From assembly GCF_058153355.1 (NCBI RefSeq), contig NZ_CM177019.1: 64,000 nucleotides of DNA; one strand, 5' to 3'. Under the pieces are notes generated by a model. The model had not been told where the DNA came from and made no database searches. It saw only the letters and a list, made by a program, of their open reading frames with translations. Shown piece after piece: positions 12,613 to 53,379 of this stretch. Positions within the stretch are counted from its first letter, which is position 1. Every line of letters begins with the position of its first letter. Made by a program: the position numbers and the translations under genes.

Positions 12613-13491
12613 ATGAATAAGTACACCATCAACGACATTACGCGCGCATCGGGCGGTTTTGCCATGCTGGCAGTCGATCAGCGCGAAGCCATGCGCATGA
12701 TGTTTGCCGCGTCTGGCGCACCCGCTCCAGTAGCCGATAGCGTTTTAACTGATTTCAAAGTTAACGCCGCGAAGACGCTTTCACCTTATGCATCGGCGAT
12801 TCTGGTAGATCAACAATTCTGCTACCGCCAGGTGGTTGAGCAAAACGCGATTGCCAAAAGTTGCGCCATGATTGTCGCCGCCGATGAGTTCATCCCTGGC
12901 AACGGTATTCCGGTAGATAGCGTAGTCATTGACCGCAAAATCAACCCGCTACAAATCAAACAAGACGGTGGCAAAGCCCTGAAACTACTGGTGCTGTGGC
13001 GTAGTGATGAAGATGCGCAGCAACGCCTGGATATGGTGAAAGAGTTCAATGAACTGTGCCACTCACACGGTCTGGTGAGCATCATTGAGCCAGTCGTCCG
13101 CCCACCGCGTCGTGGCGATAAATTCGATCGCGAACAAGCGATCATCGATGCCGCTAAAGAGCTGGGCGACAGTGGCGCTGACCTCTACAAAGTTGAAATG
13201 CCGCTTTATGGCAAAGGTCCGCAACAAGAGCTTCTCAGTGCTTCACAACGTCTGAATGACCATATCAATATGCCGTGGGTGATCCTCTCATCCGGCGTCG
13301 ACGAAAAACTGTTCCCGCGTGCCGTACGCGTGGCAATGACAGCGGGTGCATCGGGCTTCCTGGCTGGTCGTGCCGTCTGGGCATCGGTTGTCGGTTTACC
13401 GGACAACGAGCTGATGCTGCGTGACGTTTGCGCACCGAAATTACAACAACTTGGCGATATCGTCGACGAAATGATGGCTAAACGCCGTTAA
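12613..13491 (+). CDS. yihT: 6-deoxy-6-sulfofructose-1-phosphate aldolase
   Basis: 292 aa class I aldolase-like (LacD/FbaB-like) protein; synteny. Confidence 0.9.
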
Positions 13492-13506
13492 GATGAGGAT
13501 ACAAAA

Positions 13507-14748
13507 ATGAAATGGTTTAACACCTTAAGTCACAACCGTTGGCTGGAACAGGAAACCGATCGCATCTTTGATTTTGGTAAAAATTCCGTAGTACCGACTG
13601 GCTTTGGCTGGTTAGGCAATAAAGGGCAAATCAAAGAAGAGATGGGCACCCATCTGTGGATCACCGCCCGTATGTTGCACGTGTATTCCGTTGCTGCGGC
13701 GATGGGTCGACCTGGCGCTTACTCGTTGGTTGATCATGGTATCAAAGCCATGAACGGCGCACTGCGCGATAAAAAATATGGCGGCTGGTATGCCTGTGTC
13801 AATGACGAGGGCGTGGTGGATGCCTCCAAACAGGGCTATCAACATTTCTTTGCCCTGCTGGGTGCCGCCAGTGCCGTCACAACGGGTCACCCGGAAGCGC
13901 GTAAGCTGCTCGATTACACCATTGAAATTATCGAGAAATACTTCTGGAGCGAAGAAGAGCAGATGTGCCTGGAATCCTGGGACGAAGCCTTCAGCAAAAC
14001 CGAAGAGTACCGCGGCGGCAATGCCAATATGCACGCGGTGGAAGCTTTCTTGATTGTTTATGACGTAACGCATGACAAAAAATGGCTGGATCGCGCGATT
14101 CGCGTGGCTTCCGTCATTATCCACGACGTCGCCAGAAATAATCATTATCGCGTTAACGAGCACTTCGATACCCAGTGGAATCCGCTGCCGGATTACAACA
14201 AAGATAACCCGGCGCACCGCTTCCGCGCATTCGGAGGCACGCCGGGCCACTGGATCGAATGGGGCCGTTTAATGCTGCATATCCACGCTGCCCTGGAAGC
14301 CCGTTGCGAACAGCCTCCGGCCTGGTTGCTAGAAGATGCCAAAGGTCTGTTCAACGCTACCGTGCGCGATGCCTGGGCGCCCGATGGTGCCGACGGGATT
14401 GTTTATACCGTTGACTGGGAAGGCAAACCGGTGGTCCGCGAACGTGTGCGTTGGCCTATCGTCGAAGCGATGGGTACGGCCTACGCGCTCTACACCGTCA
14501 CTGGCGATCGCCAGTACGAAACCTGGTATCAGACATGGTGGGACTACTGCATTAAGTACCTGATGGACTACGAAAACGGTTCCTGGTGGCAGGAGCTGGA
14601 TGCGGACAACAAGGTCACCACCAAAGTCTGGGACGGTAAACAGGATATTTACCACCTGCTGCATTGCCTGGTGATCCCGCGTATCCCGTTAGCACCAGGC
14701 CTGGCACCGGCTGTTGCCGCAGGCCTGCTGGACGTTAACGCGAAATAA
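13507..14748 (+). CDS. yihS: Sulfoquinovose isomerase (AGE / N-acyl-glucosamine 2-epimerase fold)
   Basis: 413 aa; synteny with yihT/yihU. Intact, ending 38 bp before the Mu right end. Confidence 0.9.
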
Positions 14749-14781
14749 CTGAGCTGAAATAACGGCATATCAGGCTACATG

Positions 14782-14786
14782 CCGGG
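14782..14786. repeat. Target-site duplication CCGGG (right-end flank of Mu)
   Basis: Identical 5-mer occurs immediately outside both Mu termini (14782..14786 and 51507..51511); fits the Mu target preference N-Y-G/C-R-N. Confidence 0.9.
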
Positions 14787-15736: not shown

Positions 15737-15804
15737 CTCACCTCCTTTGCATCAATTCGCCACTATCTTAAAAAACATCATGGGTTGAGTGTGGTTATTG
15801 GGGC

Positions 15805-15850
15805 ATAATCGATCTGTATTACCGATCGATTTGATTGATTCGATCGTCGT
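15805..15850. promoter_or_regulatory. mom/com upstream regulatory region with three clustered GATC (Dam) sites
   Basis: GATC at 15811, 15824 and 15842 within 35 bp, just upstream of com; matches the known Dam/OxyR-controlled region of the Mu mom promoter. Confidence 0.6.
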
Positions 15851-16466: not shown

Positions 16467-16500
16467 TTATCTAAAACCTCGGTTTACAGGAAACGGTAAA
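16467..16500. repeat. gix recombination site, gin-proximal inverted repeat bounding the G segment
   Basis: ttatctaaaacctcggtttacaggaaacggtaaa is the near-perfect inverted copy (2 mismatches) of 19537..19570. Confidence 0.8.
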
Positions 16501-16537
16501 CAAGGCTGGTAACGCTGTTCAAAAGACAGGTGATACC

Positions 16538-17503
16538 TTGTCCGGTGGACTTACTTTTGAAAACGACTCAATCCTTGCCTGGATTCGAAATACTGACTGG
16601 GCAAAGATTGGGTTTAAAAATAATTCGGATGCAGACACCGATTCCTACATGTGGTTTGAAACAGGCGACAACGGCAATGAATATTTCAAATGGAGACACC
16701 ACCTCACTGGCGGCCGGGTTAAAGACCTGATGAATCTTAAATGGGATGCTCTGTATGTTCTTGTGAAAGCCCTTTTCAGCAGTGAAGTGAAAATATCGAC
16801 AGTCAATGCACTGAGGATATTTAATTCATCTTTTGGTGCCATTTTTCGTCGTTCTGAAGAATGCCTGCATATCATCCCTACACGAGAGAATGAGGGGGAA
16901 AATGGTGATATAGGGCCACTACGCCCCTTTACGCTTAATCTCAGAACTGGCCGGATAAGCATGGGGCATGGTCTTGATGTTACAGGGGATATATTTGCAA
17001 ACCGTTTTGCAATTAACAGTAGTACCGGCATGTGGATTCATATGCGTGACCAGAATGTTATTCTGGGCCGTAATGCGGTATCCAACGATGGTGCGCAGGC
17101 ATTGCTTCGCCAGGACCATACCGACCGTAAATTCGTAATTGGTGGGCTGGGGAATAAGCAATTTGGCATCTACATGATTAATAACTCAAGGACAGCCAAT
17201 GGCACCGATGGTCAGGCGTACATGGATAATAACGGTAACTGGCTTTGTGGTGCGCAAGTTATTCCCGGCAATTATGGCAATTTTGACTCCAGATATGTGA
17301 AAGATGTCCGGCTTGGCTCACAGCAATATTATGGTGTGAATAACTGGCAAACATGGAATTTCCAGTGCCCGTCAGGCTATGTACTGACGGGGATTAACGT
17401 ACAGGATACCGGAAAAAACTCTGCCGATAATATTGCAGGCGTTCATTACAGGCCAGTGCAAAAGTATATAAATGGCACCTGGTATAATGTGGCGAGTATT
17501 TAA
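16538..17503 (+). CDS. Alternative tail-fibre variable part S'v (silent in this orientation)
   Basis: Inside the G segment on the opposite strand to S; C-terminus ([10 protein letters not shown]) resembles the S C-terminus (NGTWYNAGSI). A complete gene would form only after inversion. Confidence 0.6.
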
Positions 17504-18032
17504 TATGATGCACTTAAAGAACATAAAAGCGGGTAATGCTAAAACACCAGAACAGTATGAGTTAACAAAGAAACACGGAGTTATCTGGCTTTACTCTGAG
17601 GACGGAAAAAACTGGTATGAGGAAGTGAAGAACTTTCAGCCGGATACAATAAAGATTGTTTACGACGAAAATAATATTATTGTCGCCGTCACTAAAGATG
17701 CCTCCACGCTTAATCCTGAAGGTTTTAGCGTCGTTGAAATCCCCGATATAACAGCTAACCGTCGTGCCGATGATTCAGGGAAGTGGATGTTTAAGGACGG
17801 AGCGGTGGTCAGGAGGACTTATACAGCAGACGAACAGCAGCAACAGGCCGAATCACAAAAGGCCGAGTTACTTTCCGAAGCTGAATCAGTCATCCAGCCG
17901 CTGGAACGCGCTGTCAGGCTGAATATGGCAACAGACGAGGAACGCACACGACTGGAAGCATGGGAACGCTACAGTGTTCTGATCAGCCGTGTGGATACGG
18001 CAAAGCCCGAATGGCCACAAAAACCTGAGTAA
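17472..18032 (+). CDS. Alternative tail-fibre assembly protein U' (silent in this orientation)
   Basis: 186 aa paralogue of U ([11 protein letters not shown]... versus MMHLKNISAGN...), inside the G segment. Confidence 0.7.
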
Positions 18033-18060
18033 AAATTAAGGCCCGATATCGGGCCTTCTC

Positions 18061-18594
18061 TCATTCTGGTTGTTCGGGAAACGTTACTGGCAGGCTGGAG
18101 GTGTCTGTGGATTCGACCTTCTGCGCATAGAGCATCCACTCGGTTAATTTTTGTTTATTCTCGTCGGAAATAATGCCCAGCCGTAGCTGTGAGTCCCACA
18201 GCTGGGTTTTATCCCTGACGAGCTGTAGCAGGCTTTGCTTTTCATTTTCCGCTTGTTGCCTCTGCTCTTCCCCGGTATAAGTTCGCTTTATCACTACGCC
18301 ATCTTTGAACATCCATTTACCTGAAATATCAGCCCGGCGATTTGCTGTAATATCAGGAACCTCAACGACGCTTGCGCCTTCCGGATTAATTGCTGAAACA
18401 TCCTTTTCAATACAAATAATAACGCCGTTGTGGTCATAGACCATTTTCAACGTATCAGGCTGAAAGTTCTTTTGTTCCTCATACCAGTTTTTCCCATCCT
18501 CTGTATAAAGCCATTTGATGTTAAATTGCTTTGTTAGCTGGTATTGCTCTTTTGTTTCAGGATTACCAGCAGAAATGTTTTTTAAGTGCATCAT
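18061..18594 (-). CDS. U: Tail-fibre assembly protein U
   Basis: 177 aa, directly downstream of S on the same strand. Confidence 0.8.
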   Translation of the reverse strand: MMHLKNISAGNPETKEQYQLTKQFNIKWLYTEDGKNWYEEQKNFQPDTLKMVYDHNGVIICIEKDVSAINPEGASVVEVPDITANRRADISGKWMFKDGVVIKRTYTGEEQRQQAENEKQSLLQLVRDKTQLWDSQLRLGIISDENKQKLTEWMLYAQKVESTDTSSLPVTFPEQPE

Positions 18595-18596
18595 CG

Positions 18597-20063
18597 TTAA
18601 ATACTCCCCGCGTTATACCACGTCCCATTAATGCAATACTGAACTGGCCTTGCCTGAGTTGTATCAATTAGTTCATCTCTGTTTGAGTTAACGGAACCGG
18701 TAACAACATAACCTGACCTGTCAGACCAGCCGGGACCATTCCATGTCTGAACAGATGACAGACCACCAAGGCGAATACCTGTAATAAACCTTGAGTTACA
18801 TTCTGCCTGCGTATATGCGCCAACATCTCTCGCTGATGGCTTGCGTGTTGTGGTGTAAAACTCTGACCAGCCAGCCTCAAATCCATAACCATCACGCGCT
18901 GAACGATAAAAAATACCGCCGTTCCTGTAATTCACACGGAACTGTACGGCAGGGCAACTCCCCGTATTCATATTGAAGTGGAGGATTAATGTTGTTGCGC
19001 CACCAATATTTGCGTTATAGACCCCGCTATTCCAGTTCCAGCCAACGGCTTTGTCGTTTCCGACGGTATTTCCTGTTTGCCCTAAAGCAAATGCAGGCTG
19101 CTGGTTTTTCGTGTTGTAGTCTCGTCGCCAGCCAGGAGCGTAAGCATCACCATGATTAATATAAGTGAATTGAGCGTTAGTGATTCCGCCGCCGCTGGAC
19201 GTGCCCGGCGTGGTAACGCGTATGGTCATTGCGCCGCGGGTGCCAATAACTTCCACCACAGCACCTGCAAGACAAATATTTCCGCAACCTGTATCTGTAA
19301 TGACCTTATTATTTGCATAAGCCCATGAGCCTTTGCACATCCAGTAAGGATGGTTAAATGCTCCCTGACTCTCCAGCCACGAAATAAATTGCGCAGTTGT
19401 CCAGACCTGACTATCGCCACCAATATCCACCCATGCGCTATATGCGCGACAGGCACCAATATTTTTGGTGAAGGTATCTTTTCCTGGAATATCTGCGCCG
19501 TTCTGGTTTTTCTGTAATGCGCCAGAAGCCTGATTTACCGTTTCCTGCAAACCGAGGTTTTGGATAAACAGCGGCTTATTGGGAATATCTGCTCCGTTCC
19601 GGTCTTTTGCCAGACGGGCATTGGCATTATCCATCGCAATTTTCACCGCTTTTGCGGTGGCTGCCAGCGTTTCACTGGGGCTGTCAGTGGCACTGGTTAG
19701 CTGAACGAGTCCTTTTTTGTTCAGGCTGGCATCATAGATATCCAGATTTTCACGTGCTGTACGCTGTGCTGATGCCCCGGCAGTTTTAATTTCGCTGAGG
19801 TTATTTTTTATCAGCAGCGCGTTCTTGTTCATGATGGCTTTAATGGACAGTGCAAGCTGGTTTAATTTTGTTTTATCCGGTTGAATACCGGCTTCTTCCA
19901 GCGTGTTTAATAACTCCGCCTGCACAATATTAAACCAGTCCATGCCGGGCCATGTGATAACATTATTCCCGTCACCTTCTGAAAACCAGCGAACGATAGC
20001 ACTACGCTTGGCGGATACGGGCGGCATGACGGTTACGCCGCTGTCGTTATCAATATAAAACAT
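18597..20063 (-). CDS. S: Tail fibre protein S (constant part outside G, variable part inside G)
   Basis: 488 aa; ORF crosses the gix boundary at about 19570. Confidence 0.8.
   Translation of the reverse strand: MFYIDNDSGVTVMPPVSAKRSAIVRWFSEGDGNNVITWPGMDWFNIVQAELLNTLEEAGIQPDKTKLNQLALSIKAIMNKNALLIKNNLSEIKTAGASAQRTARENLDIYDASLNKKGLVQLTSATDSPSETLAATAKAVKIAMDNANARLAKDRNGADIPNKPLFIQNLGLQETVNQASGALQKNQNGADIPGKDTFTKNIGACRAYSAWVDIGGDSQVWTTAQFISWLESQGAFNHPYWMCKGSWAYANNKVITDTGCGNICLAGAVVEVIGTRGAMTIRVTTPGTSSGGGITNAQFTYINHGDAYAPGWRRDYNTKNQQPAFALGQTGNTVGNDKAVGWNWNSGVYNANIGGATTLILHFNMNTGSCPAVQFRVNYRNGGIFYRSARDGYGFEAGWSEFYTTTRKPSARDVGAYTQAECNSRFITGIRLGGLSSVQTWNGPGWSDRSGYVVTGSVNSNRDELIDTTQARPVQYCINGTWYNAGSI
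19537..19570. repeat. gix recombination site, S-proximal inverted repeat
   Basis: tttaccgtttcctgcaaaccgaggttttggataaaca; inverted copy of 16467..16500. Confidence 0.8.
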
Positions 20064-23833: not shown

Positions 23834-25313
23834 TAATCACCTCAATACTGACGCCACCGGGAACAAACAACGGGTTGCTGATACCATTCCTGCGGGCCAG
23901 CCGTTGCCAGTTCCGGCTGTTTCCTGTGTAACGGTACAGGGCCACCATTGCAGGCATCGTCTCCGGCAGGCGGTGCGTTTCACTTCCCGCCAGTTGCAGC
24001 CCACGTTTTTCCAGGTCGGCAACAACCAGCAGACGCAGTTGCGTAAGCTGAACGCTGTCTGTCGAAAAGCCCTGCTCAGATGCCGTCAGAATGACGGTAT
24101 CCAGTGCAGCCCCCAGCATGGCGGCTGTTTTTCCGATATCGGACACACTTTCAAATACCGGGGGCGTGGCTGTACCACTGTCTGAAAAGGATACCTGTGA
24201 AAAGCCGCCGTCCGGGGTTATGGTAGTTAACTGTAACTGTCCCTGTGTGACGGTAGCAGATGTGCTGCTGGCCCCGCTGGCTGTGCCGGTTGTGGTGGAC
24301 GGGGCATCCAGTACAGGTGTACGGGCGGCATTATCCATCCGGCGACTGAAATCCAGTGCCGCAGTCAGTGCCTGGCTGGCAGCTTCTGCCCGGTATGTCT
24401 GCGCCGCTGCCAGCATGACGTAGTTCAGTGTGGCAATATTTTTTTCTGCAACCGGACTGTTGTACGAGGTTGTGATTGCCCCCTGTCTGCCTGCGGTGGC
24501 GGCATGGCGACGTTCGAATCGCTGCGCCAGACGGTTCCATGTGGAAAATGCTGTCCGGGTATCGCATAACGATGAAACGCCGGACAGCGCCCCCATCAGC
24601 GAGGAGGCCAGCATGGCAGGCTGGTTAATCAGGCTGGTCACAGAGCCTTTCATCGCAGAAAGCGATCCCATCAGACCGCTGACAGTCTGCGTAACCCCCA
24701 GATTGTCCACCGCATCACTGATATCATCGATGACACCGGTTACAGCTTCCATCACGGCGGTTGCCGCCGCAGTGCCATCTTTTACGGTCTGCCAGACAGA
24801 GGACAGCGTATCCCCCAGAGAACCGGTTACAGCAACAGCCTGTGCCGGTACGGCTGCACTGGTGTCTGTTTCTGCGTCCGGGGCAGTATCCTGCAACGAC
24901 GGATAAACGGTAACGGTGAACGCGTAATAATTCAGTTCATCCGCTTTAGTGCGGCATTCCCATGAATCCACCATGACGTCCACAGTGCCGAAATCAGGAT
25001 GTACCAGCTCACCGCTGCCCGGAGCATCAAGAGCATCCATCAGCGCATCCGCTTCATCTCTGGCTGTTTCTGCGTTACTGTTCAGAATGCAGGCGCTGAA
25101 TGTACGGGAGCGAAGCTTTTTCCCCAGGTCATTGACGCCGCCGGTATCACGTAACGGGTACTCGCGTTTAACCAAGCGACGTCCGCCAGCCTGTTTTTGC
25201 TCCTCGATGACGAGAAACGGCACGTTACGGAACGTGCCTTTGCCGGTTGTTTTCCTGCCTCCACCGGTTTTATCCCGGACAGCATTAACGGCATTTAAAG
25301 CATCTTCAAACAT
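23826..25313 (-). CDS. Mu N-position protein (DNA circularisation / tail protein)
   Basis: 495 aa; immediately downstream of the tape measure gene. Confidence 0.65.
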
Positions 25314-31465: not shown

Positions 31466-32383
31466 TTACAGGTAGTCAGCGACAACCAGTTGCAGCTTGC
31501 CCTTCATCTCGTTGGAGACGGTGGTATTGCCATCCGCGAACAGTTCACGGTTAAGCAGTTGCTCTGCGGCTTTTTCCAGCCCGACCGGTACAACGATATG
31601 CGTCGGCTTCAGGCCCAGCTTCTTACCGCCATCACCTTCAAAAGATCGCATCAGTTGCCAGCCCTTCCAGAGGTTATCCAGCGTCAGATCGCCTTTTACC
31701 GCGACAGCCATCTGCCAGAAGCCGTAACCGGCAGCACGGCGGGCGCTGGCACCAAACAGGAACTCGTTATCCATAAAAACGTGGTCGTCATCGATACGGG
31801 TACGTGCGACCAGTTCCGGTTTGCGGCGCTCCTGGAAAATCAGCGGTTTGACTGCGCGGGAGCAGTCCAGCAGATAGAATGGCAGACCGCTGAAGCTGTC
31901 CTGCTCAACGATGTTGGAGGTATTAACCGCGCTGCCCGTGCCGTCCACATTCGGATATACCGGATGCTCCTTGTCGAAGAAGTTCTGACCGTCATAGCAG
32001 GGCTGGGTAAAGCCATCTTTCAGAAGTTTAAAAATCAGCTCATCCGGCTGAACTGCCGCAGAACGGCCCATCTCCTGAAAAATCGGCGCATAAATACCCA
32101 GATTGTCATCCTCGAAGTCATCACGGGAAATACCCACGGTGCCTTCAAACGTTTTATTGGCGATAGAGTAGCCATGCGCTTCCATTTGCTGAATGGTTCG
32201 CTTACCCACCCATTCTTTCAGGGTCGGGAATTTACCCAGCCAGCCATAGGTATTACTGCGGGTGGAAGAGTTCACCACCATTGCAATTTTGCTGTACTGC
32301 GACGGGGCGTCTTCAAGACCGCCCTGAAAATCCTTACGCCAGGAGGTCATCAGGGCTTTAATGGATGCCGGGGTGACAATCAT
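31466..32383 (-). CDS. T: Major capsid protein
   Basis: 305 aa; follows the protease/scaffold gene. Confidence 0.8.
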   Translation of the reverse strand: MIVTPASIKALMTSWRKDFQGGLEDAPSQYSKIAMVVNSSTRSNTYGWLGKFPTLKEWVGKRTIQQMEAHGYSIANKTFEGTVGISRDDFEDDNLGIYAPIFQEMGRSAAVQPDELIFKLLKDGFTQPCYDGQNFFDKEHPVYPNVDGTGSAVNTSNIVEQDSFSGLPFYLLDCSRAVKPLIFQERRKPELVARTRIDDDHVFMDNEFLFGASARRAAGYGFWQMAVAVKGDLTLDNLWKGWQLMRSFEGDGGKKLGLKPTHIVVPVGLEKAAEQLLNRELFADGNTTVSNEMKGKLQLVVADYL

Positions 32384-33465
32384 TTTTCTTGTTCCTGTTT
32401 CATTTTCAGATACTCAGCCTCAGTAATGCCGAGCGCCTTCACTGCTGCCTGTTCATCAGCAGACAGCACCGCCACTGCCGGTTTTTCCTGTGACAGGTTT
32501 TGTACCGTTGTGGTCTGCATGGCAGATAACGCAGCGATGGGCTGTTTTTTCTCAAGCTGTGCCGACAGTGCCGCCACGCCAATCTGACCGCCAAGCTGTT
32601 CCAGATAGGTACGTTCGCTTTTGAAAATGCGGCCTTCCTGTTCCGCCTTGTCCAGAACGGCGCTCAGGCTGGCTGTGGCGCTTTGTGCAGTCGCCTGTGC
32701 CAGTTCATCACGCAGGGCGTTGTAGCTTTCCACCGGGACGTATTTCGTCAGGTCAACGGCGGCGTTCTGTGCCTTTTCCAGTTCGGCGGATAACGACGCC
32801 ACTTTCCCGGCATTACTTTCCAGCGTGTCCAGTGCGGTCAGTGCCGCTGTTGCCTGTTCATCGGTGATGTCTGCATTTTCGGGGACAGTCACCCCAAGAC
32901 GCGCAAGCAGCTTGCGCAGCGTTTCATTCATGGGTTTGTTCTCCTGTTGAAGGATGTCGGGAAGGTCTGCCGCCAGTGCGGTCAGCTTTTTCATGCCGGT
33001 GGCACCGGGGTCATTGGTCAGCGCAGCAAGGCGGATTTGCAGCACCGCACCGGTGGCGGTGTCATACGGAAAAACCGCAGAGAGATAACCAAATTCGCCG
33101 TCATCGATGCGCTGCTGGGCCGCCGCCGTCCAGCGTGGGTGGATAAATAACCCTTCACCTTCACGCCACTGCATTTCATCGGCGTTAAACCAGCCAGCCG
33201 CGACGAGTTGTTCCGGGGGTAATCCTTTGTCCTTACGTAGCTGGTTATGCTCGTAATCAATCAGCACGTCCTGGTTGAGCGCGCGAACGCCTTCAACCAG
33301 ACGCCCGGCAATCTCACCGTCGATGAACCACCCCTGACCGTCTGTCACATCAAACGGACGACCATCACGGGCACTGAAATGACCGGCAGGCAATAGCTGG
33401 CACCAGCCGTCATCGTCAATGGACAGCGCACTCAGTGCGGCAATGCCAATCGCGTGTTTTTTCAT
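32380..33465 (-). CDS. I: Head maturation protease / scaffold protein
   Basis: 361 aa; Ala/Gln-rich coiled-coil C-terminal half (scaffold-like); immediately upstream of the capsid gene. Confidence 0.75.
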   Translation of the reverse strand: MKKHAIGIAALSALSIDDDGWCQLLPAGHFSARDGRPFDVTDGQGWFIDGEIAGRLVEGVRALNQDVLIDYEHNQLRKDKGLPPEQLVAAGWFNADEMQWREGEGLFIHPRWTAAAQQRIDDGEFGYLSAVFPYDTATGAVLQIRLAALTNDPGATGMKKLTALAADLPDILQQENKPMNETLRKLLARLGVTVPENADITDEQATAALTALDTLESNAGKVASLSAELEKAQNAAVDLTKYVPVESYNALRDELAQATAQSATASLSAVLDKAEQEGRIFKSERTYLEQLGGQIGVAALSAQLEKKQPIAALSAMQTTTVQNLSQEKPAVAVLSADEQAAVKALGITEAEYLKMKQEQEK

Positions 33466-33661
33466 GTCCTGCTGCTCATCATGGTTTGTGAGCAGTCAGT
33501 TTGCGGGTGGTGCGGGAAAATCTGGGGTTATGCTATTTGAGTAATGGAGAAAGAAAGTGGAAGGAAGATAAAACGGGATTCATACACCGTTAAATACCGG
33601 TTTAAAAATCCCCTGGCGCGTTTTAAAAAATCTGTGCGGCTGATTTCATGTCTGATTCAGT
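33466..33661. other. G-I intergenic region, expected site of the Mu strong gyrase site (SGS)
   Basis: 196-bp non-coding gap near the centre of the prophage (about 18 kb from the left end), where the SGS lies in Mu; exact site not verifiable by eye. Confidence 0.45.
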
Positions 33662-34132
33662 TTATTGCCTCAGAGCGGCGCTGACGCGTTTTCTGATGGC
33701 ATCAAAAATTTCCTGTTCCCCGGTCTTATCCAGCCCCATATAAGGACGCGCAGGAACGCCTGCCGGGCGGGGTGCCATATCGGGTGTACCTCCCCACTGA
33801 TGAATGGCAGCATAAATTTTTGGCGAACCAATCAGGGCATAATCCTGTCCATAATCGGTGGTAATGCTGCGTGCCAGATCGCCATGCAGGGTAAGGATAC
33901 TGCCCGGAACAAAACCATGATCCTGACGCCATGCCTGCCACGAATCGCTCCACGCTTCCCAGCCTTTCCCTGTATCCGGGTCTGCCTGCCGTTCAAATGC
34001 CTGTTCCGTGGATGACAGCAGCGCCGCAGCCATCACACGGGGAATGGCGCGGTCACGTGTAACGGTTCCCAGTTCATCCAGTGCAAGCTGAATACGTCGC
34101 ACATCCACGGCAACGTTCATATCAAGACTCAC
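33662..34132 (-). CDS. G: Virion morphogenesis protein G
   Basis: 156 aa; order F-G-I. Confidence 0.65.
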   Translation of the reverse strand: MSLDMNVAVDVRRIQLALDELGTVTRDRAIPRVMAAALLSSTEQAFERQADPDTGKGWEAWSDSWQAWRQDHGFVPGSILTLHGDLARSITTDYGQDYALIGSPKIYAAIHQWGGTPDMAPRPAGVPARPYMGLDKTGEQEIFDAIRKRVSAALRQ

Positions 34133-41044: not shown

Positions 41045-41135
41045 GCTTCCCTGAAAAAATGCGCTGATGGCAGTCTAAAAAATCAGGTGACAGGTGCGGG
41101 ATTATGGTGACAGGAAATAACCGGCAGGATGCCGG

Positions 41136-41558
41136 TTATTTCTGGCTTTCAGGTGAGAACAGGTCAGGCTGATGACGTCGTGTATGCAGCTTTCTCTGGC
41201 GGGCAATAATCTGGTAGATCTGCGGCTGGGACAGGCGATACTGGCGACGCAGTTCTTCCATGTTACGACCATTGAACTGGCAGTAAAGCAAATCGTCGCG
41301 TAACGCGGTCAGGATCGTATCGCCGCAGGGGATGTAAAACTGCCGCCCGCCCAGAAAACAGGACAGGGCAACGGCCTGTTTACGGGCAAGCTCACGGGGA
41401 TTGCTGACGTTCTGGCGTTTCAGTTCGTTTTCCAGAACATCAATCAGATCAACCACCGAACGGGGCCAGCGTGATTCCAGTTCCGGGGCCGGGATGTTAT
41501 CAATATGTCCGATTAACTGGCGAATTGCCGGATCGTGTTCAAATAAATCATGCTGCAT
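41136..41558 (-). CDS. C: Late-gene transcription activator C
   Basis: 140 aa; paralogue of Mor (shared ...FNGRN...EL...Y..S motif). Confidence 0.85.
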   Translation of the reverse strand: MQHDLFEHDPAIRQLIGHIDNIPAPELESRWPRSVVDLIDVLENELKRQNVSNPRELARKQAVALSCFLGGRQFYIPCGDTILTALRDDLLYCQFNGRNMEELRRQYRLSQPQIYQIIARQRKLHTRRHQPDLFSPESQK

Positions 41559-41670: not shown

Positions 41671-41901
41671 TCACTGAATTTTCTGTACACAATATTTTTC
41701 CTTATAACGTTGGCAGTGGTGAAGAATTTCCGGCATATCAACCGACTGCCAGCCTTTCATGTAATAACTTCCGTGGGTGCCATCATGACCGGTATAGTCG
41801 CGGGGCGAAGGCCGTGGCCCACCGGCGACACGGTGTAAAACCTCCTGACGCAGCCGCTCACGTCTGCCAAGATGAAAGGATGCATTCCAGCCTTTACCCA
41901 T
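41671..41901 (-). CDS. Hypothetical small ORF between mor and C
   Basis: 76 aa ORF in the mor-C gap; no motif recognised. Confidence 0.3.
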   Translation of the reverse strand: MGKGWNASFHLGRRERLRQEVLHRVAGGPRPSPRDYTGHDGTHGSYYMKGWQSVDMPEILHHCQRYKEKYCVQKIQ

Positions 41902-43493: not shown

Positions 43494-43813
43494 TTTGCGG
43501 CCCTCAGAATAAATTCAGGATAAAATTTCAGACTCATTTGCCGTAACACATCCAGTGCAGCAACGGCTGCTGATTTATCGTTGCCATCAGCAATAGCGCG
43601 GAGATTTTCAATAATCCAGTGAGGACTCAGTGACTCAGCAACAATACCGAGTCGGTACGCCATGACCTCATCAATTGCACGGTTATAAGACGGGGCGTAT
43701 ACCGCCGCCACAAAGTTACCGATCACATCTTCAGGAAAACCCGCCGCCGTCAACAACGCTGTCAGTTCCTCGGATTTTGTAAATACGCCATTATTCATTC
43801 TGTTCACCTTCAC
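43490..43813 (-). CDS. Mu semi-essential early-region protein
   Basis: 107 aa. Confidence 0.45.
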   Translation of the reverse strand: MKVNRMNNGVFTKSEELTALLTAAGFPEDVIGNFVAAVYAPSYNRAIDEVMAYRLGIVAESLSPHWIIENLRAIADGNDKSAAVAALDVLRQMSLKFYPEFILRAAK

Positions 43814-44054
43814 AATTCATGCACGCCGTGTCATCGCCCATATCGCAGTGGTTGCATTTCTGCCCGCCACAATGGGGACACTCTTTCAGATATTCAGGGG
43901 ATTCATTACCGCAGGTCGGGCATTCCTGTTTCACCGTGGTGAATTTCCCCAGCCACGAATACGATGTTTCATTGTTTTCCATTGTTTGCCTCCGCCTGCT
44001 CCAGTGCCATAACTGGTGCGTCAGAACAGTCAAGAATGAGATAGCGCAGTACAT
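43791..44054 (-). CDS. Mu early-region Cys-rich small protein
   Basis: 87 aa; CPTCG...CPHCGGQKCNHC...CMNC zinc-ribbon-like cysteines. Confidence 0.45.
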   Translation of the reverse strand: MYCAISFLTVLTHQLWHWSRRRQTMENNETSYSWLGKFTTVKQECPTCGNESPEYLKECPHCGGQKCNHCDMGDDTACMNCEGEQNE

Positions 44055-44520
44055 GGTCGGTGATATTCCATGCGCTTGAGCTGCAAATAAAACGCCCCAG
44101 CCGGATATCGATATAAGCCATCACAAAACGGGGCATTCCCTGTTTGCACATCTCGTCATCCACTTCTGCAACGATGTGAACGGATTCACAGGTCAGTACG
44201 CCTGTCGCAAACTCTTTTGCCAGCGCGGGGATAGTATTACCTTCCACCCAGGGTAATGAGCGACGCCAGTTGCACCACACCGCATCATCAACGGCAGGCT
44301 GCTCAGTTGCGTTTCGTCTTACAGGCGGCGTCGGACGCGGGCGCGGAACGTCATAAAATCCGTTGCATTCGGTGAGCACTCCGGCATCAACCGCATCCCG
44401 CAGGAAATACACCATTGACGAGGGCAGCATCTTCATTTTTTCAGCCAGAACCCCGCAGGTCAGACGCCCGTAAGCCAGTAATAATGTGCTGACCCCATTC
44501 AGAACTTTTGCATCAATCAC
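43969..44520 (-). CDS. Mu semi-essential early-region protein
   Basis: 183 aa. Confidence 0.45.
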   Translation of the reverse strand: MIDAKVLNGVSTLLLAYGRLTCGVLAEKMKMLPSSMVYFLRDAVDAGVLTECNGFYDVPRPRPTPPVRRNATEQPAVDDAVWCNWRRSLPWVEGNTIPALAKEFATGVLTCESVHIVAEVDDEMCKQGMPRFVMAYIDIRLGRFICSSSAWNITDHVLRYLILDCSDAPVMALEQAEANNGKQ

Positions 44521-44523
44521 CGG

Positions 44524-45078
44524 TTATTCCTCCGTCAGTGCCACAAATTCAGAATGTTTAATACGCTGGCATTCGGAGGGAACTGGTCCTTTAACCTCAC
44601 CGTCCAGAAGGCGCACCTCAAACAAAATGCCGAATCCATCACGGGTGTGGTGCATCTCCCAGAGCGATTTGAAATCCCACATATTGGGTATGACATCAAC
44701 CCCAAGTTCATTGCACAGCCAGCCCGGAAAATCCGGGTATTTACCGAGCTGATTTTCATAGCCCCGGATAAGCTCCGCGTGTTCCCGGCCTGCTGGTGTT
44801 GTCATATCCGGCATCGCTGCCCATAACTGAATATCACCAATAAAAAGTGTCCTTGATTTAATCTCCCATCCTTCCGGTGGTAAACGGTTAAACCAGACAC
44901 GCGTAACCCTCTCAGGCCCTTTGTCACCAGACAAAAACACACCGCTTGCTTTCACTGATTGCTGTAATGACGCAATAATCTCACCACGCTTAACAGAAAC
45001 CTCTTTCAGCCAGCGAATCGTATAACCGTTAGCGGCTGCGTCACTCAGTTTAAAATAAGCACATGCTTTCATTTTCAT
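44524..45078 (-). CDS. Mu semi-essential early-region protein
   Basis: 184 aa. Confidence 0.45.
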   Translation of the reverse strand: MKMKACAYFKLSDAAANGYTIRWLKEVSVKRGEIIASLQQSVKASGVFLSGDKGPERVTRVWFNRLPPEGWEIKSRTLFIGDIQLWAAMPDMTTPAGREHAELIRGYENQLGKYPDFPGWLCNELGVDVIPNMWDFKSLWEMHHTRDGFGILFEVRLLDGEVKGPVPSECQRIKHSEFVALTEE

Positions 45079-45169
45079 TCTCTCCGGTTCTGATTAAGGC
45101 GCGAGTCGTCCCCTGACGCATCGCGCCATAATTAAACGAATGTGAATTAATTAAATATTAATGGTGGTA

Positions 45170-51506: not shown

Positions 51507-51511
51507 CCGGG
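51507..51511. repeat. Target-site duplication CCGGG (left-end flank of Mu)
   Basis: Identical to 14782..14786. Confidence 0.9.
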
Positions 51512-51540
51512 TATGTCGTTATTCAATAAAGGTGCCTCGT

Positions 51541-52443
51541 ATGCAAATCACCAACATGCATTGCAGTGGACAAACCGTTTCACTTGCCGCGGGGGATTAT
51601 CACGCGACTATCGTGACGGTTGGTGCTGGTCTGGCTGAATTAACTTTTCAGGGTTGTCATTTAGTCATCCCGCACAAACCCGAAGAGATGCCGCTGGCGC
51701 ATCTGGGTAAAGTGCTTATTCCGTGGCCGAACCGGATCGCCAACGGCTGTTACCGCTATCAGGGACAGGAATATCAGTTACCCATTAATGAACATAGTTC
51801 AAAAGCCGCTATTCACGGGCTGCTTGCCTGGCGAGACTGGCAAATTAGCGAATTAACCGCCACCAGCGTTACCCTGACAGCTTTTCTACCGCCCAGTTAC
51901 GGCTATCCGTTTATGCTGGCTTCGCAGGTTGTTTATTCGCTCAATGCTCGCACGGGCCTTTCCGTTGAGATCGCAAGCCAGAATATTGGTACTGTGACCG
52001 CACCTTATGGTGTGGGTATTCATCCTTATTTAACCTGCAACTTAACATCTGTTGATGACTATCTTTTCCAGCTTCCGGCAGAACAGGTTTATGCCGTCGA
52101 TGAGCACGCAAATCCGACAACGCTTCACCACGTTGATGAGCTGAATTTAAATTTCACGCGGGCGACAAAAATAGCCGCGACAAAAATAGACCATACCTTT
52201 AAAACCGCTAATGATCTGTGGGAAATGACCATTACCCATCCACAGCAGGCGCTGTCGGTGAGTCTTTGTTCCGATCAACCCTGGGTGCAGGTTTATAGCG
52301 GCGAAAAATTACAGCGTCAGGGACTGGCAGTTGAACCTATGAGTTGCCCGCCTAACGCCTTTAATTCAGGTATCGACTTATTATTACTGGAACCAGGAAA
52401 AACGCACCGCCTGTTTTTTAATATTCACGGGCAGCACAATTAA
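51541..52443 (+). CDS. yihR: Aldose 1-epimerase-family protein (sulfoquinovose mutarotase)
   Basis: Start MQITNMH... with RBS AAAGG; the longer 345-aa ORF (from 51406) begins inside Mu left-end DNA and is an artefact. Synteny between yihS and yihQ. Confidence 0.85.
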   Translation: MQITNMHCSGQTVSLAAGDYHATIVTVGAGLAELTFQGCHLVIPHKPEEMPLAHLGKVLIPWPNRIANGCYRYQGQEYQLPINEHSSKAAIHGLLAWRDWQISELTATSVTLTAFLPPSYGYPFMLASQVVYSLNARTGLSVEIASQNIGTVTAPYGVGIHPYLTCNLTSVDDYLFQLPAEQVYAVDEHANPTTLHHVDELNLNFTRATKIAATKIDHTFKTANDLWEMTITHPQQALSVSLCSDQPWVQVYSGEKLQRQGLAVEPMSCPPNAFNSGIDLLLLEPGKTHRLFFNIHGQHN

Positions 52444-52503
52444 TTTTATTAAGAAAAGAACGAGATTATTGTTTAGGGTTGTATTTACACAACAGGAAAT
52501 ATT

Positions 52504-53379
52504 ATGGACTTTTTTACGTTATTTTCGCCAGATGGGGCCATGCTGGAAACAAACGTGGTATGTATCGTTATCGCGTTGATGTTTCTTTATACCTTTGTGG
52601 GGATATGCGCGGGATTTGGTGGCGGTTTAACCACCATGCCACTCGTCACGTTAATGCTCCCCGTAAAAATGGCAACACCACTTTCGGTAATTGTCGGCAC
52701 CGCAACCGCCTTGTACGCCACCTGGCTATCACGCAAAGAAACGGATTGGCGCTCGGCAATGGTGCTGATTATTTTCTCATTTTTGGGAATACCCGTCGGT
52801 TTATATGCGCTGTCATATTTACCCGACCATTTTATGAAAGTGGGCTTAGGTGGATTTCTTATCCTCTACTCCTTTTACAGCATGTTTATTCCTCGCTTGC
52901 CGATTTATGACCGTAACTGGATCGCCGCACCTATCGGCGCAGTAGCTGGCGCATTAGGCGCGGCGTTCTCAACCAACGGGCCGCCGATGGTTATCTACGG
53001 GATGCTGCGTAACTTAGGTCCGGCGGCATTTCGCGGCACTCTGAACGCTTTCTTCACCGCAAACAACATCGCGGTGATCGGCGGGCTGGCGACCAGCGGA
53101 ATTTTGACTGTTTCTATCTTTAAACTGGTGCTGTTTTGTATTCCCACCATGATCCTCGGTTCACTGATTGGACAATATGTGCATAAACGCATTTCGGTCA
53201 AAGTGTTTCGTGTGATGGTCTTTTTATTGTTGATTGCCTCCGGTTCTATGTTGATAAAAGGTGCGTTGGGAATTCCCGCCGCTGCCGCACTTCTGCCTCC
53301 GTTTACCTTGTTAGTTATACTGCAACTGGCATTTGGTAAAAAAGTGGCGGCAATCCGCCGGGCTGAAGAAAGTAAATAA
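52504..53379 (+). CDS. TauE/SafE-like polytopic membrane protein (putative sulfonate/sulfite-type anion exporter)
   Basis: 291 aa, very hydrophobic with Gly-rich helices (GFGGGLTT, GAVAGALGAAFSTNGPP); co-oriented inside the yihR-yihQ interval. Confidence 0.65.
   Translation: MDFFTLFSPDGAMLETNVVCIVIALMFLYTFVGICAGFGGGLTTMPLVTLMLPVKMATPLSVIVGTATALYATWLSRKETDWRSAMVLIIFSFLGIPVGLYALSYLPDHFMKVGLGGFLILYSFYSMFIPRLPIYDRNWIAAPIGAVAGALGAAFSTNGPPMVIYGMLRNLGPAAFRGTLNAFFTANNIAVIGGLATSGILTVSIFKLVLFCIPTMILGSLIGQYVHKRISVKVFRVMVFLLLIASGSMLIKGALGIPAAAALLPPFTLLVILQLAFGKKVAAIRRAEESK

Follow-up and report, generated by a model that had tools for sequence, protein, structure and literature searches.

The gap between genes G and I of a Mu-type prophage very probably holds the Mu strong gyrase site beside the late promoter P_I

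The 196-bp non-coding gap between genes G and I of a Mu-type prophage very probably holds Mu's strong gyrase site (SGS), together with a separate element formed by the late promoter P_I and the RBS of gene I; given the near-identity of the sequences, the site would be expected to function as it does in Mu. The prophage lies in a stretch of 64,000 nucleotides (contig NZ_CM177019.1 of NCBI RefSeq assembly GCF_058153355.1), which is referred to here as the window; all positions are those of the window unless assigned to Mu, and the coordinates of the features are collected in Table 1. The element itself is already known, because it is a textbook cis-acting site of Mu. As far as its sequence can tell, the gap is bifunctional, with the SGS core and right arm beside G, the late promoter beside I, and a pyrimidine-rich spacer between the two.

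Table 1. Features of the prophage, the G-I gap and its flanking genes in the window.
Feature	Position	Strand	Basis or remark
Complete Mu-type prophage, 36,720 bp	14787-51506	minus	BLAST to Mu, identical termini, target duplication
Target duplications, 5 bp, CCGGG	14782-14786 and 51507-51511		Flank both prophage ends
Pmom	15745-15811		Late promoter of the same prophage
PP	24168-24234		Late promoter of the same prophage
Gene I, head maturation protease with internal scaffold gene Z	32380-33465	minus	361 aa; Mu-like_Pro PF10123, E 5e-98
ATG start codon of gene I	33463-33465	minus
Non-coding gap between I and G, 196 bp	33466-33661	none	ORF boundaries
RBS of gene I	33475-33477	minus	Mu 18044-18046, sequence identical
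Late promoter P_I, C-dependent	33478-33544	minus	Mu 17977-18043, annotated "late promoter, PMID 2522923"
Late-promoter box GCATAACCCC	33524-33533		Within P_I
Hairpin followed by GTTTTAT	33568-33613	minus	Mu 17908-17953, terminator predicted by TransTermHP
SGS, ~133 bp, predicted to be wrapped by gyrase	33577-33709	minus	Ungapped match to the published Mu SGS fragment
SGS right arm	33577-33641	minus	Wholly within the gap
Three phased TTTAAAC-like boxes of the right arm	33588-33626	minus	Conserved-column pattern and signature scan
Right-arm A/T tracts	~33621-33631, 33601-33609, 33590-33596
Mu "gyrase cut site"	33642/33641		Mu 17879/17880, annotation of AF083977
Putative cleavage stagger, 4 bp	33642-33645		GATT, centre of the 133-bp fragment
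SGS left arm	33646-33709	minus	Last 48 bp are the 3′ end of G
Gene G, virion morphogenesis/neck protein	33662-34132	minus	156 aa; Phage_tail_S PF05069, E 1.6e-42
Plys	41052-41118		Late promoter of the same prophage

BLAST comparison showed that the prophage is ~97% identical to Mu along most of its length, and 40 nt at each terminus are identical to those of Mu. The insertion, with duplication of CCGGG, separates yihS (sulfoquinovose isomerase) from yihR (aldose-1-epimerase), and in prophage-free E. coli genomes both flanks abut between these two genes with an overlap of exactly 5 bp. According to the ORF list and the Mu annotation, the ORFs for transposase A, B, the repressor c and the activator C have the same lengths as in Mu; C corresponds to a 140-aa ORF (41136-41558), the length of Mu C, inside a block ~97.7% identical to Mu. 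Complete ends, a target duplication and the A, B, c and C ORFs would fit an element that is still able to transpose.

In the host sequences that flank the prophage (13300-14786 and 51507-53000), identity to complete E. coli genomes reached 99.1-99.2% at most and was 90-95% for the majority; judging from these identities, the host looks like an uncommon Escherichia lineage outside the complete E. coli genomes that were compared. Within the prophage, the invertible G segment (16467-19567), which carries the tail-fibre genes S/U and S'/U', is inverted with respect to the rest of the prophage when compared with the Mu reference. Its identity to Mu is just ~86%, compared with ~97% elsewhere, and this divergence suggests a different host-range cassette. 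The early/middle region is mosaic relative to Mu (41687-41689 and 43496-45089): the prophage lacks an equivalent of Mu 9463-9831 (gene 19, a 4-TM protein), ~550 bp at 44535-45089 and ~290 bp at 43496-43789 gave no BLAST match to Mu, and ~24 bp stand in the place of Mu 6921-7455.

The initial annotation had described a 196-bp gap separating G and I, and the ORF boundaries give exactly this interval: the stop codon of gene G occupies 33662-33664, and the 5′ side of gene I ends at 33465. The G+C content of the gap is 43.9%, as against 55-56% for the flanking genes. It had also been counted among the few sizeable non-coding gaps of the late region, which the ORF list and the Mu annotation bear out, since it is the largest internal intergenic interval of the whole prophage. 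Only the two terminal att regions are longer, and the next largest internal intervals measure 169 bp (the repressor/ner operator region) and then ~105-112 bp. Compared with the G-I gaps of Mu, D108, SfMu and Mu_3F6, the gap is 96.4-99% identical (96.4% to Mu AF083977 17860-18055, 98-99% to D108 and 99% to Mu_3F6). The alignment to Mu contains no insertions or deletions, so that a window coordinate here equals 51521 minus the Mu coordinate.

The supposition that this gap lies where the SGS is expected held, because it aligns without indels to the Mu interval that bears the annotated gyrase cut site. The initial annotation had named alignment to the mapped Mu SGS as the way to check this, and we performed it using as the query the 133-bp Mu SGS fragment of Sutormin et al. 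2019 (PMC6379681, Suppl. Table S2), which had served gyrase binding and supercoiling assays in that study. The fragment fell on 33577-33709 without gaps, with 128 of 133 positions identical, and the same segment matched GenBank Mu 17812-17944 at 129 of 133. Both GenBank Mu and the window have C at window position 33640 (Mu 17881), two bases off the plus-strand cut, but the PMC6379681 fragment has G; strains may differ here, the source plasmid may carry a nuB-type allele, or the G may be a typographical error.

By position, the putative plus-strand cut would lie between T33641 and G33642 (5′-T/GATT), and that of the minus strand between 33646 and 33645 (A/AATC in phage orientation). At the sequence level, T/GATT is kept at 33641-33645, and the T at 33643 is nearly invariant among relatives. 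The arm limits given in Table 1 follow secondary citations. The cut sequence reported from cryo-EM work is 5′-T/GATTT (PMC11626157). The putative cut is 17,865 bp from the left end, at 48.65% of the prophage (Mu, 17879/36717, 48.7%) and 495 bp left of the exact centre, in agreement with the description of the gap as roughly mid-genome. Gap and site do not coincide, however. The core and the right arm, which is the arm required for function, are inside the gap, but the left arm extends 48 bp past it into the 3′ end of G. Conversely, only the G-proximal ~85 bp of the gap belong to the SGS (85 bp of core and right arm), and the remainder consists of the predicted hairpin, the pyrimidine-rich spacer, P_I and the RBS of I.

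The window site thus resembles the Mu SGS in its flanking genes, its distance from the G stop codon, its cleavage tetranucleotide, its right-arm boxes and its fractional genome position, and differs from it by four substitutions in 133 bp (33647, 33651, 33659 and 33613), all of which fall in alignment columns that vary among relatives. The first three, just left of the cut, constitute a D108-type allele common to D108, Mu_3F6 and FDAARGOS_1058. Relative to D108, the window has further single-base changes at 33613 in the right arm and at 33544 and 33508 in the P_I region. The substitution at 33613 is C to G in phage orientation, which leaves the strong/weak base class unchanged; it falls in the G/C spacer that separates boxes 1 and 2 of the right arm, in a column that varies freely among relatives. 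Mu-type sites occur in 40 complete E. coli genomes, none of which has exactly this 85-bp core and right arm, indicating that the change at 33613 is private to this prophage.

In the I-proximal half, the segment corresponding to Mu P_I is identical at 65 of 67 positions, and the two substitutions (33544 and 33508) are both outside the box common to late promoters. This box, ATAAC/TC, is in register across P_I and the other C-activated late promoters of the same prophage, Plys, PP and Pmom. A simple scan of 33300-33800 found no sigma-70 -35/-10 consensus, as would be expected of a promoter that needs the activator C. P_I and the RBS of I would constitute a separate, ordinary element in the I-proximal part of the gap.

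To describe the right arm across relatives, we used 13 aligned sequences spanning 49-100% identity in the I protein. Fourteen of the 18 invariant columns fall in three boxes (TT..AA.G / TT.AA / TT.AA.G), which are invariant across all 13 sequences and separated by free spacers; successive conserved TT dinucleotides are separated by 21 and 11 bp, or about two and one helical turns. Turned into a search signature, the boxes occur once in the window (33588-33626, minus strand; 0 expected) and once in the whole Mu genome. When IMG/VR was searched with the I protein, 22 loci at 49-97% amino-acid identity were retrieved, in 20 of which the G-I gap measures 196-254 bp; the two exceptions are L009, where the locus includes too little upstream sequence, and L023, where the interval is 624 bp. 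At least one copy of the signature was present in all 29 loci examined (two in L026), a result that is partly circular, some of these loci having supplied the pattern, although the positive loci include some outside the derivation set, notably the divergent L023. Coordinates were usable for 15 related viral contigs; 13 of these carry the signature 47-58% of the way along the contig, whose borders approximate the phage ends.

A diverged Mu-like prophage, which we call SE11-type, occurs in three E. coli genomes (SE11, TUM9757 and PEC422) with a G-I region 78% identical to that of the window. Its coding flanks are 90-96% identical but its right arm only ~52%; when only the strong/weak class of each base is compared, identity is ~74% in the right arm and 56% in the spacer, a contrast that is statistically weak. 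The SE11-type prophage keeps the core ATAAAATCA, the T tracts and the late-promoter box. Diverged Mu-like prophages in general (SE11-type, Pasteurellaceae-type and others from IMG/VR) share with the window a gap of ~196-254 bp, a core ~20 bp after the G stop codon and three TTTAAAC-like boxes at 21 and 11 bp, roughly central in the genome, whereas their cleavage tetranucleotide varies (AATC, CATG, AATG, GTTG). Oram and Pato 2004 reportedly tested such sites from prophages of E. coli O157 Sakai, Salmonella Typhi, Haemophilus and Neisseria.

When a slightly tightened signature was scanned against all IMG/VR contigs, at least 80 loci were found. Among the matches listed, in 47 of 80 the signature directly follows a G-family ORF and/or precedes an I-family ORF, and some of these ORFs are only 24-32% identical to the window proteins. 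The other 33 of the 80 listed are mostly on low-G+C contigs, where a chance A/T-rich pattern is likelier. They include three recurrent groups of contigs that have the signature but no recognizable adjacent G or I (L079/L080/L082/L083; L043/L075/L085; L049/L062/L063/L064), and within each group the neighbours are conserved and particular to it, such as an ORF of 331 aa upstream and one of 131 aa downstream; the groups may be either chance matches or gyrase-type sites of other phage families. The exact three-box signature was absent from Mannheimia 3927AP2, Pasteurella Pmp9, Pseudomonas MP42 and Alteromonadaceae B23, all four of which have comparable phased boxes upstream of I that differ in spacing or in the final base, so the signature is not universal among Mu-like phages.

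Considering that the signature is kept in phages whose G and I proteins are 25-50% identical to those of the window, it could serve as a general predictor of central gyrase sites in transposable phages. It is conceivable, but we regard it as a tentative proposal, that the SGS right arm is defined throughout the family by this searchable pattern, namely three TTTAAAC-like boxes at 21 and 11 bp that begin ~35 bp after the G stop codon. Mutations of the nuB type tune the strength of the SGS, and a lesser variant of the same proposal is that the private change at 33613 might do likewise.

Two other features of the relatives were observed around the box array. In some Mu-like phages, extra genes lie between it and I (L023:841-1500; L151:119-814; L152:226-631): a 231-aa ORF in Pasteurella phage Pmp9 (L151), two small ORFs in Pseudomonas phage MP42 (L152) and ~620 bp in L023. 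Inserted cargo seems to be tolerated immediately downstream of the gyrase site. In L011, L015 and L028, a near-perfect inverted repeat is located between the putative core and box 1, ~25-50 bp after the G stop codon; that of L015 reads GGCGTTTAAA-TTCT-TTTAAACGCC and is absent from Mu and the window.

Scores that make no use of homology were also computed. As a proxy for Topo-Seq, we applied the published 133-bp consensus without weights (PMC6379681). The site ranked ~2,400-4,700 among 127,736 window positions (top 2-4%), and the unweighted consensus was rejected as an SGS finder because it did not single the site out. With only the A/T positions of the consensus, 31 of 42 were matched (mean 20.7, sd 4.2; z ~2.4), which places the site in the top 0.7% but not first; this score falls steeply when the register is shifted by a few bases in either direction from the mapped one, and in its A/T positions the site keeps phase with the gyrase motif derived genome-wide by Topo-Seq. 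For Mu itself, PMC6379681 reports that the full Topo-Seq position matrix ranks the SGS first. In a Fourier analysis of A/T periodicity at 10-11 bp, the right arm reached the top 2.6-9% at best and the left arm was at background; the boxes, spaced 21, 11 and 12 bp, do not give a single clean period. These results are compatible with a gyrase site, but composition alone would not have found it.

Other strong gyrase sites (pSC101 par, the pBR322 site, BIME-2/REP) and the Topo-Seq motif have in common with the window site a length of ~130 bp, central cleavage and arms of periodic A/T versus G/C, whereas those sites show no sequence homology to it. According to passages of PMC6379681 and PMC13284261 that cite Pato and Banerjee 1999/2000 and Oram 2006, these other sites could not replace the Mu SGS in replication, and the right arm of Mu is unusually extended. 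We identify the window segment as the SGS because of its near-identity to an experimentally mapped site, the homology-independent scores being insufficient by themselves. Since the core, the right arm, the central position, both prophage ends and the A, B and repressor ORFs are all present, we infer with high confidence that its function is the same as in Mu.

The steps by which the site would act are taken from the Mu literature and carried over to the window by this near-identity. Efficient replication of Mu requires the SGS, which works best from a central position (PMC10052514, PMC3820752); for Mu lacking its SGS, a delay of about 100 min after induction is reported in a review (PMC10052514). 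It promotes synapsis of the prophage ends and formation of a prophage domain, for which IHF, Fis and HU are also needed (PMC3820752). In cryo-EM on the Mu SGS, the right arm is wrapped by gyrase on the GyrA C-terminal domain in the role of T segment, with the A/T repeats of this arm facing the protein in the minor groove (PMC11626157). In the prophage described here, host DNA gyrase would bind the SGS in a fixed register, cleave it at 33642-33645 with a 4-bp stagger and wrap the right arm (33577-33641) round the GyrA C-terminal domain as the T segment, a path that the phased TTTAAAC-like boxes would favour. The outcome would be unusually processive negative supercoiling. With the SGS nearly equidistant from the prophage ends, it would come to lie at the apex of a growing plectoneme at whose base attL and attR meet, and synapsis by the transposase and rapid replicative transposition after induction would thereby be promoted. 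The SGS may also help to keep the prophage a separate chromosomal domain.

Because the homologous Mu interval is annotated with both P_I and a terminator hairpin, the gap could be read as an ordinary inter-operon region, in which a terminator of the lys-to-G late transcript is followed by P_I and the SGS has been inactivated by the four substitutions. The good preservation of P_I agrees with this, and so does the change at 33613, which has no exact counterpart in the 40 E. coli genomes with Mu-type sites. Neither the cleavage core nor any of the three right-arm boxes is disrupted, however, the substitutions sit in columns that are freely variable among relatives, and three of them are common to D108 and Mu_3F6. 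In relatives the DNA boxes are conserved and the hairpin, whose sequence overlaps boxes 2 to 4 of the right arm, is not. This hairpin folds with a predicted -19.8 kcal/mol (z -3.2) in Mu but -16.8 kcal/mol (z -1.9) in the window, where the private change at 33613 removes the outer pair, and in the SE11-type relative the region is no better than shuffled sequences (z -0.2). A simple scan of the gap found no canonical terminator and missed this hairpin too, and as a terminator it is weakly supported here. An Rfam scan of 33300-33850 with E up to 1 gave no match, and a conserved terminator or RNA element was rejected because no consensus RNA structure was found across the 13 relatives. Moreover, promoter and SGS occupy different halves of the gap, so the one does not exclude the other, and we consider it very unlikely that the gap is an inter-operon region with a defunct SGS.

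Protein coding is the least credible alternative, with a probability close to negligible. Two public records annotate an ORF inside the SGS/P_I gap, namely D108 "gene 31.5" in the phage sense (33528-33656, minus strand) and the 46-aa "hypothetical protein" VUD37893.1 of Mu_3F6 (33544-33684, plus strand), and both frames are open in the window. These annotations overlap on opposite strands, however, and look spurious: the sense frame lacks an ATG, GTG or TTG start, neither product has a Pfam match, and stops together with a 1-bp indel break both frames in the SE11-type prophage, whose G and I are conserved. The conservation takes the form of three short DNA boxes with free spacers and shows no codon pattern. 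A small-protein gene in the gap was rejected.

Somewhat less improbable, but still unlikely, is that the TTTAAAC boxes are sites for a sequence-specific protein such as IHF, Fis or a phage factor, instead of or besides being bending signals for the GyrA C-terminal domain. They are conserved at the base level (TT..AA.G), more tightly than A/T tracts would need, IHF, Fis and HU are required for the Mu prophage domain (PMC3820752), and 33 of the 80 signature matches listed, including the three recurrent groups, are outside recognizable G-I junctions. Against this, the cryo-EM structure places the right arm, with its A/T repeats facing the protein, on the GyrA C-terminal domain (PMC11626157), purified gyrase alone suffices for strong binding to the SGS (PMC6379681), the phase of the boxes agrees with the genome-wide gyrase motif, and the literature examined contained no report of another protein binding at the SGS.

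With the gap read as the Mu SGS beside a P_I/RBS element, the annotated Mu site is present and intact in a wild Mu-type prophage, a result of little wider import. For annotation, the gap should be labelled as SGS and P_I rather than as a small ORF, on which the two public records conflict, and the SGS feature should be made to span the stop codon of G (33577-33709). The family-wide three-box signature is a modest by-product. If it is true, recognition by the GyrA C-terminal domain would be base-specific, beyond mere A/T phasing, and the signature could help to locate central gyrase sites in other transposable phages, where they have so far only been guessed at, for example in Pseudomonas phage Ab30 (PMC5977238).
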